DNA from: Escherichia coli
Lineage (GTDB): Bacteria; Pseudomonadota; Gammaproteobacteria; Enterobacterales; Enterobacteriaceae
Strand: one strand, 5' to 3'
Length of the DNA: 42,979 nucleotides
Assembly (NCBI RefSeq): GCF_003334815.1
Contig: NZ_QOWO01000032.1
Made by a program: the position numbers and the translations under genes. Positions 42,237 to 42,979 of the stretch are shown here, piece by piece. The notes beneath the pieces are model-generated. The model was given only the letters and a program-made list of their open reading frames with translations. It was not told the origin of the DNA and ran no database searches. Each line of letters opens with the position of its first letter. Position 1 is the first letter of the stretch.

Positions 42237-42979
42237 TACTGCTCCTGAGCGGTTTACAGGAGTAAGTGTAGACGTTGAGAAATGATATTTGTGAAGTTAA
42301 TCCTGTTGTAGCAGGACAAATTTACGAAAGCCTGCTCCCCGCAAGGACTGACGTCAGGTAGTTTCTAACCATAGCTGCCCTTTCTATTCAAACGTGAAAT
42401 CAATAAGCTCATCAGGGACATCGCAAACAATATGAAGACGGGTTTCTTCTCTGCCGTGACTCTTTTCACTAATTGCGTAACTGTCATGCTTGGGATTATT
42501 TAATTCTTTCAGCGGAAATTTTTCCTCGAAGGCTTTATTTAGCCGCCCTTGGTTTCCTTTTACAGCGAATAAATAATCACCTCCCTGTTTTTGTATCTTC
42601 TCTGCAATATCTTTCTGGCAACCCATCGCATCAGTTGTGATGATTTTTCCTTTAATATCCAGCATGTTAAGAAGTTCAGGGATAGCTGTGATCTCATTGG
42701 ATTTCTTATCCGTCTTGATCTGTCCGATGACCAGACTGTGCATTGTTGAGAACGCACTAATGACATGAATCGCTCCCTTACGGCGACTCTTGTCATAAGA
42801 ATGCCGGTGTATTTTTCCATCAATTGCGATGACGTCTTTATCATCTGAAGAATGGTAGTCAAGCATCCAGTTAATAAAGCTCTCATGAAATTTCGCAGGA
42901 CAGATACAGGATACAACTCTGGCAATGGTATCGTGAACAGGAATACCATTTTCAAAATCACCATATTGCTTCAAAAAAT
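42237..42979. mobile_element. H-repeat (H-rpt, ISAs1-like) element remnant, truncated by window
   Basis: Contains the transposase ORF above; the element boundary falls somewhere in 42237..42383 and was not resolved. Composition and codon usage look different from the neighbouring ybgA-phr. Confidence 0.55.
42384..42979 (-). CDS. ybfD: H-repeat-associated ISAs1-family transposase, 3' portion (5' end beyond window)
   Basis: ORF runs to the window edge; DDE-transposase-like sequence (…[15 protein letters not shown]…[33 protein letters not shown]…). Symbol by position next to ybgA in K-12, from memory. Confidence 0.75.

Follow-up and report, generated by a model that had tools for sequence, protein, structure and literature searches.

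ybfD, a defective H-repeat (ISEc1, ISAs1 family) copy at the ybgA-side border of the RhsC island of Escherichia coli

Introduction

The insertion sequences of the ISAs1 family, the prototype of which is ISAs1 of Aeromonas salmonicida, are about 1.2-1.5 kb in length and carry a single ORF for a DDE transposase between short terminal inverted repeats. The H-repeat element of Escherichia coli is entered in ISfinder as ISEc1 of the ISAs1 family, and the ybfD copy in the RhsC element also goes by the name H-rptC3. A description of the H-repeat together with the Rhs elements of K-12 is credited to Zhao et al. 1993 (J Bacteriol 175:2799). Proteins of this group are named in RefSeq 'ISAs1-like element ISEc1 family transposase'. 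[quoted passage not shown] 2009 (PMC2935791).

In this study we analysed a stretch of 42,979 bases of E. coli DNA (hereafter referred to as the window), for which the annotation of a collinear genome lists the tRNA-Lys/Val array, tol-pal, cyd, mng, suc, sdh, gltA, ybgDQPO, abrB, nei, pxp, ybgI, dtpD, phrB, ybgA and ybfD. At the end of the window, a preliminary description had placed a remnant of H-repeat or ISAs1-family transposase beside the ybgA-phr operon. Here we establish the identity and family of this element, its ends, both of its lesions, its neighbours and its distribution among genomes. ybfD itself is not a new element, its locus having been described in the 1990s, and nothing in our observations departs from the known picture; new here is the base-level and population-level detail of the remnant.

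Results

Identification of ybfD as a member of the ISAs1 family

An ORF of the minus strand extends from 42979, the edge of the window, to a TAG stop codon (for the coordinates of all features see Table 1), with a translation of 197 aa within the window. This fragment matched the NCBIfam profile NF033564 'ISAs1 family transposase' with E=1.3e-70 and 238 bits (curated cutoff 70) over profile positions 29-220 of 314, and also two Pfam profiles, DDE_Tnp_1_assoc, of which the C-terminal end was matched, and behind it DDE_Tnp_1 (model 3-139 of 200, E=1.9e-17). The match to the ISAs1-family profiles is far above chance, and the homology check proposed in the preliminary description, whether the ORF is a DDE transposase, was thereby answered in the positive. 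The coverage of NF033564 stopped at 220/314, which already pointed to a loss on the C-terminal, ybgA-facing side of ybfD. Compared with the ISAs1 family as described, ybfD shares the NCBIfam equivalog model and the DDE_Tnp_1_assoc/DDE_Tnp_1 architecture, but differs in being decayed: its catalytic domain is incomplete, the K-12 type has a single end, and a target-site duplication is absent.

Matches to the last 1280 bases of the window were obtained in thousands of complete E. coli genomes; the closest of these differ at one base and have phrB, ybgA and ybfD annotated at the window tail. In a genome with this 1/1280 difference, RefSeq calls the gene 'ybfD: ISAs1 family transposase, incomplete, missing C-terminus' and marks it as an incomplete pseudogene. 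The counterpart in MG1655 is ybfD (b0706; 'H repeat-associated putative transposase YbfD'; NC_000913.3 738092..738853), and this annotation, together with the profile matches, bears out the remnant beside the ybgA-phr operon. Over ybfD-ybgA, the window tail and MG1655 are identical at 977/980 positions: locus, stop, deletion, right inverted repeat (IRR) and distance to ybgA are all equal, and the difference consists of three substitutions, at window 42637, 42633 and 42549, all within ybfD. At 42637 and 42633, separated by 4 bp, the window agrees with all other H-repeat copies and MG1655 is unique (ATCAAAACCGAT vs ATCACAACTGAT); this difference could represent a small gene-conversion tract or mutations of the MG1655 lineage.

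Table 1. Coordinates of the features of ybfD and its ybgA-side flank within the window
Feature	Coordinates	Strand	Basis or remark
ybfD coding sequence in the window	42387..42979	-	codons 57-253 and part of codon 56
Asp109 codon, motif IAIDGK	42819..42821	-	presumed first catalytic Asp, kept
Asp172 codon, motif TTDAMGCQ	42630..42632	-	presumed second catalytic Asp, kept
Premature stop TAG, codon 254	42384..42386	-	TGG (Trp254) in intact copies
Junction of the 311-bp internal deletion	42376..42378	-	alignment to reference; deleted L002 8148-8458 = YhhI codons 257-360
Retained 3'-terminal ~66 bp of the element	42312..42377	-	BLAST, window 42378-42312 vs L002 8459-8525
Right terminal inverted repeat (IRR)	42312..42331	-	comparison with intact copies
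Host spacer, 75 bp, from ybgA start codon (ATG ends 42236, - strand) to element terminus	42237..42311	.	homology boundaries

Extension beyond the window and determination of the element ends

As a reference we used the intact copy beside rhsB, that is yhhI (b3484), which encodes 378 aa within an element of 1291 bp (L002 7235-8525) with the terminal sequences CAGGG...CCCTG. For extension beyond the window edge through near-identical genomes, a K-12-type locus (L001) was employed, in which the window coordinate equals the L001 coordinate + 25699. The ORF had been described as cut by the window edge, and indeed codons 1-56 lie beyond it; the extension led to the native ATG at window-equivalent 43145, indicating that the N-terminus is intact. 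By BLAST, ybfD matched the yhhI element in two segments, L002 7259-8147 (96.4% over 889 bp) and L002 8459-8525 (86.6%). The remnant measures 954 bp in comparison with 1291 bp for the intact element, and 668 bp of it are located inside the window, where the coding sequence covers the C-terminal end of DDE_Tnp_1_assoc and the first two-thirds of the DDE domain. The start codon, the N-terminal domain and the type of terminal sequence (CAGGG...CCCTG) are common to ybfD and yhhI, but ybfD lacks 311 internal bp, carries W254* and, in the K-12 type, lacks also the first 24 bp together with the left repeat.

The preliminary description expected the end of the element between 42237 and 42383, and alignment to other H-repeat copies located it at 42312, the outer end of the right inverted repeat, 75 bp from the ybgA start codon, where the homology to the other copies ends. 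Its assignment of 42237-42979 to the element was upheld for 42312-42979, while the 75 bp of 42237-42311 turned out to be host spacer. Read inward on the plus strand, the IRR of ybfD is CAGGACAAATTTACGAAAGC, with 17/20 positions identical to the canonical CAGGGCAAGATTACGAAAGC of intact copies; this canonical form occurs in yhhI and in the middle copy of K-12 as well as in the alleles of APEC O2-211 and U1. The retained piece of about 66 bp that carries this repeat corresponds to around positions 1225-1291 of the reference, matches also the 3' end of the middle copy, and would encode the last residues of the transposase.

On the left side, the boundary of ISEc1 was set by five copies with five different left flanks, for which the homology starts exactly at CAGGG; the right ends close at CCCTG. 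The first 24 bp of the element, and with them the left inverted repeat, are missing from the K-12-type ybfD, which directly abuts the right end of the middle copy; the left inverted repeat is intact in the ybfD alleles of APEC O2-211 and U1. The terminal repeats of the reference element are short and imperfect, matching at 11/13 positions, and the automated search for inverted repeats did not report the terminal pair, in which the exact runs are only 5 nt and below the seed length; the element ends rest on manual comparison and homology boundaries. The alignment to other copies, proposed earlier for finding terminal repeats and a target-site duplication, thus yielded the right repeat but no duplication, none being present at any copy examined (U1 flanks, GCCAAGGA vs CTACAACA; likewise APEC and yhhI). 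Left flanks differ between strains, and therefore rearrangement may have erased any duplication, without which it is not possible to reconstruct how the element was originally inserted.

Within the yhhI element, 21 nt of sub-terminal sequence (L002 8423-8443) show 81% complementarity to 8510-8530, which comprises the right end and 5 nt of flank. The inner arm of this complementarity falls in the segment deleted in ybfD, and the complementarity itself may be due to chance.

Internal deletion and premature stop codon of ybfD

Whether the transposase is full-length had been left undecided in the preliminary description, and the alignment to the reference gave a negative answer: behind the intact N-terminus, ybfD carries a 311-bp deletion and a nonsense codon. 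The deletion junction shows a 2-bp GC microhomology inside the imperfect repeats AAAGGGC / AAAAGC. The TAG at codon 254 is located six bases into the retained coding sequence from the junction, and the ORF ends at 253 aa. The TGG of codon 254 is kept in the U1 allele and in all intact paralogs, and TAG is found in the K-12 type and in APEC O2-211.

In intact YhhI, DDE_Tnp_1_assoc occupies residues 8-94 and DDE_Tnp_1 residues 102-343 (model 3-200), while YbfD ends at model position 139. We assigned the catalytic triad after the general pattern of the DDE_Tnp_1 family; under this assignment the two Asp residues in Table 1 are kept, and the candidate for the third acidic residue, Glu307 in HWHVENKLHW of YhhI, is within the deleted codons 257-360. 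With DDE_Tnp_1 covered to 139/200 and HWHVENKLHW deleted, ybfD is filed as a defective member of the ISAs1 family. Judging from the position of these motifs, ybfD would be unable to encode an active transposase and, because the K-12-type copy possesses one end only, mobilisation in trans is not expected of it either.

The ORF is in fact cut by the window edge, and intact ISEc1 copies able to supply transposase exist in E. coli genomes; from these two facts one might suppose an intact or trans-mobilisable insertion sequence, truncated in appearance only. This candidate was refuted by the extension and the alignments, which gave a 954-bp remnant that has lost 311 bp, stops prematurely and, in the K-12 type, is without the left repeat, and RefSeq classifies the gene as an incomplete pseudogene; we consider it virtually impossible.

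Neighbouring H-repeat copies and the RhsC island

The gene order beyond the window is that of the K-12 type, rhsC, ybfB, ybfO (the rhs C-terminal tip), ybfC, ybfQ, ybfL, ybfD and ybgA, with ybfA and kdp beyond rhsC. The rhsC gene, 4.2 kb in length, occupies window-equivalent 47461-51654. As expected for an accessory copy of RhsC, ybfD was found downstream of an rhs core gene with a C-terminal tip and immunity-type ORFs. The prediction of an Rhs-type accessory region just beyond the window was therefore correct, and this region contains, besides the rhs tip, the immunity genes and rhsC, two more copies of H-repeat.

One of these, ybfL (b0705), is the full-length middle copy of 1291 bp with an internal stop, and the other, ybfQ (b4514), is a 5' fragment consisting of the first 380 bp only. 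Both are of the same family and in the same orientation as ybfD, forming with it a head-to-tail array in which all three copies are defective; both differ from ybfD in their absence from APEC O2-211 and U1, which still have ybfD. The tandem array, specific to the K-12-type lineage, consists of three copies that are mutually 93-94.5% identical and therefore not recent duplicates.

The junctions of the array are abrupt, at L001 17566/17567 and 18856/18857 (window-equivalent 43265/43266 and 44555/44556): ybfQ ends at element position 380, immediately followed by the middle copy with its left inverted repeat, and the middle copy is in turn fused by its right end to element position 25 of ybfD. We considered ybfQ and ybfD as the two halves of one element split by the middle copy, but this was rejected because positions 1-380 and about 25-913 overlap and the two are only 93% identical.

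Distribution of ybfD and variation of the island border among strains

A 301-bp query, reaching from the ybgA start through the spacer, the right end and the deletion junction to the end of the ORF, was searched against 5,426 complete E. coli genomes, and was fully covered in 3,093 (57%) of them; elsewhere the homology stops at window ~42274-42299. The exact 33-nt deletion junction gave 0 matches in 100,044 species-representative genomes and hence no sign of the allele beyond the E. coli strains, a weak test since an exact match was needed.

The interval between ybfA and ybgA varies between strains, always with rhs or immunity-type content in those examined. RM9387 (L004) carries an rhs gene, a DcrB-related gene, a SymE-family toxin gene and, at the identical site, a 34-bp right-end stub with no transposase gene. 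YJ1 (L005) has the K-12-type array without ybfD, THO-008 (L006) has immunity-type ORFs only and no rhs gene, and JX21CE8 (L007) shows a different arrangement with another, frameshifted ISAs1 copy. In APEC O2-211 (L008) and U1 (L009), ybfD is located beside ybgA with the same flank, the identical junction, intact left repeats and canonical right ends, and with quite different upstream neighbours. These two strains share GAA>TAA at codon 65 (E65*), to which APEC adds frameshifts. The ORF of ybfD is decaying, as other lineages carry different extra stops and frameshifts. The same junction and the same ybgA flank in the K-12 type, APEC O2-211 and U1 indicate that the insertion and the 311-bp deletion are old and shared.

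The SymE-family type I toxin gene of RM9387 (L004 7216-7545) directly abuts the 34-bp stub, and a second SymE-family gene is present beside an intact ISEc1 copy in APEC O2-211 (L008 8099-8301). It seems that, at the island border, symE-like genes accompany the ends of H-repeats.

The stub of RM9387, a solo right end without transposase gene at the same site, raises the question of whether the junction in ybfD might join unrelated fragments, an old right-end stub and the 5' fragment of a different H-repeat copy, brought together by illegitimate recombination; the higher divergence from the reference of the K-12-type stub (86.6%) than of the body (96.4%) goes in the same direction. The joint is, however, identical in three divergent lineages, and the short imperfect repeats with a 2-bp microhomology are as expected of a simple deletion. 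Moreover, the last 23 bp of the stub show 0/23 differences from the reference in APEC and U1, indicating that the extra divergence of the stub is specific to the K-12 lineage, and a later event in which most of the element was replaced would account for the stub of RM9387 equally well. We therefore regard the joining of two fragments as improbable and retain the simple internal deletion.

Selection on the ybfD reading frame

In order to compare the ybfD alleles for dN/dS, we used window 42387-42979 together with L001 16688-17446, L008 4238-4998 and L009 4229-4996. The pairwise dN/dS among the three alleles was 0.21-0.26, lower than expected for free decay; between APEC and U1 it was 0.26, although both carry the stop at codon 65. 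Equal dN/dS between alleles with an early stop implies that the low ratio cannot reflect selection on the YbfD protein.

The changes were then polarised with four paralogs into lineage-private and paralog-segregating ones. The private nonsynonymous:synonymous numbers were 9:7 for the K-12 type and 6:3 and 6:2 for the other two lineages, ratios that are near neutral in two of the three lineages. On the K-12 branch, the private changes are nominally enriched for synonymous ones (p=0.028, a value not corrected for transition bias), and the replacements private to this branch, L55P, C97Y and TL112-113IH, are radical and at conserved positions. The 16 sites with states segregating among paralogs are synonymous-rich (10:6). 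The best explanation of the low dN/dS is variation that ybfD has in common with intact paralogs or has received from them by conversion. After polarisation with the paralogs and the control by E65*, the low pairwise dN/dS was dropped as evidence of function; the p=0.028 of the K-12 branch would allow, to a small degree, for a constraint on the product of 253 aa that is weak or belongs to the past.

These data bear on the possibility that YbfD of 253 aa is a domesticated, functional truncated transposase, which might for instance inhibit in trans, or regulate, ISEc1 copies or neighbouring genes. Such a product would keep two catalytic Asp residues and, at its N-terminus, the DNA-binding domain; in the K-12 type the native start is followed by an open frame of 253 codons, and the allele is kept in 57% of the complete genomes; the pairwise dN/dS and the synonymous enrichment on the K-12 branch might be added. 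Across the lineages, however, the ORF is not kept open under purifying selection as expected of a domesticated gene: APEC O2-211 and U1 stop at codon 65 with dN/dS of 0.26 all the same, APEC carries frameshifts, and W254* is variable. The paralog-segregating sites point to shared variation or gene conversion, the K-12-private replacements hit conserved positions, and YJ1 has a K-12-type island without ybfD. In addition, the adjacent spacer between ybfL and ybfD has been used as a neutral integration site in MG1655 (PMC7797564). Domestication of YbfD is, in our estimation, highly improbable, and we continue to treat ybfD as a decaying pseudogene.

The spacer between ybfD and ybgA

The two genes ybfD and ybgA are in the same orientation and 150 bp apart. 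Within the host spacer, the segment of about 42237-42275 was common to all strains in a five-strain alignment, and in some strains the common sequence continues up to about 42296; some 40-60 bp upstream of the ybgA start codon are thus conserved before the variable island begins. The strains diverge about where the -35 element of ybgA would be expected. When 42100-42979 was scanned for consensus promoters and terminators, neither a relevant promoter nor a terminator-like site was detected between the two genes on the minus strand. By a relaxed scan by hand, only the weak TTCACA-N19-TACACT (42295-42265) was noticed, located inside the host spacer, with no good match to sigma-70. An effect of the island border or of read-through on the expression of ybgA-phrB is unlikely. 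The wider proposal, that the border or H-repeat read-through sets strain-specific expression of ybgA-phrB (photolyase), or else that YbfD of 253 aa keeps DNA binding and damps ISEc1, is taken as a very unlikely one.

Other repeats in the window

The preliminary description considered the H-repeat as the only mobile-element sequence in the window. This holds true as far as annotated IS or transposase genes are concerned, of which ybfD is the sole one, but REP/BIME, that is small non-autonomous repeats, are also present: the REP pattern GCCKGATGCGRCGY gave 9 matches in the window vs 0.21 expected after shuffling. The spacer between the convergent dtpD and phrB (40163-40311) carries a BIME with two inverted REP units, GCCTGATGCGACGC...GCGTCTTATCAGGCCTAC and GTAGGCTGGATAAGGCGTTCACGCCGCATCCGGCA, and in RM9387 and THO-008 this spacer has a plain hairpin only and is ~108 bp shorter. 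The BIME between dtpD and phrB is a presence/absence polymorphism of a small repeat element. Further REP clusters are located at 18241-18434 and 22772-22806 (the odhB-sucC and sdhB-sucA spacers), and also at 6861-6874. At the opposite end of the window (14-683, minus strand), five tRNA genes, Lys, Val, Lys, Val and Lys, are arranged as an ordinary feature of K-12.

Discussion

Taken together with the history proposed below, the best explanation for the observations, in which we place high confidence, is that ybfD/H-rptC3, of which about 70% is contained in window 42312-42979, is a dead copy of ISEc1 (H-repeat, ISAs1 family; 1291 bp) at the ybgA-proximal end of the RhsC island in K-12-like E. 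coli. We infer the following order of events. An ISEc1-type element would have been inserted 75 bp upstream of ybgA, and a 311-bp deletion between short imperfect repeats would then have taken the last third of the DDE catalytic domain. Thereafter the lineages would have gained different further lesions, W254* and the loss of the first 24 bp in the K-12 type, and E65* and frameshifts in others; the loss of the left end in the K-12 type is located where the neighbouring copy abuts. The remaining role of ybfD would probably be a passive one, that of a stretch of repeated DNA bordering an island prone to recombination.

The low dN/dS of ybfD provides a cautionary example, in that a low ratio in a pseudogene of a repeated element need not mean function. 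The base-level description of the remnant is useful for both pangenome and pseudogene annotation, and on the ybgA side ybfD is the landmark by which the border of the RhsC polymorphic-toxin island, with its gene content variable among strains, can be recognised.
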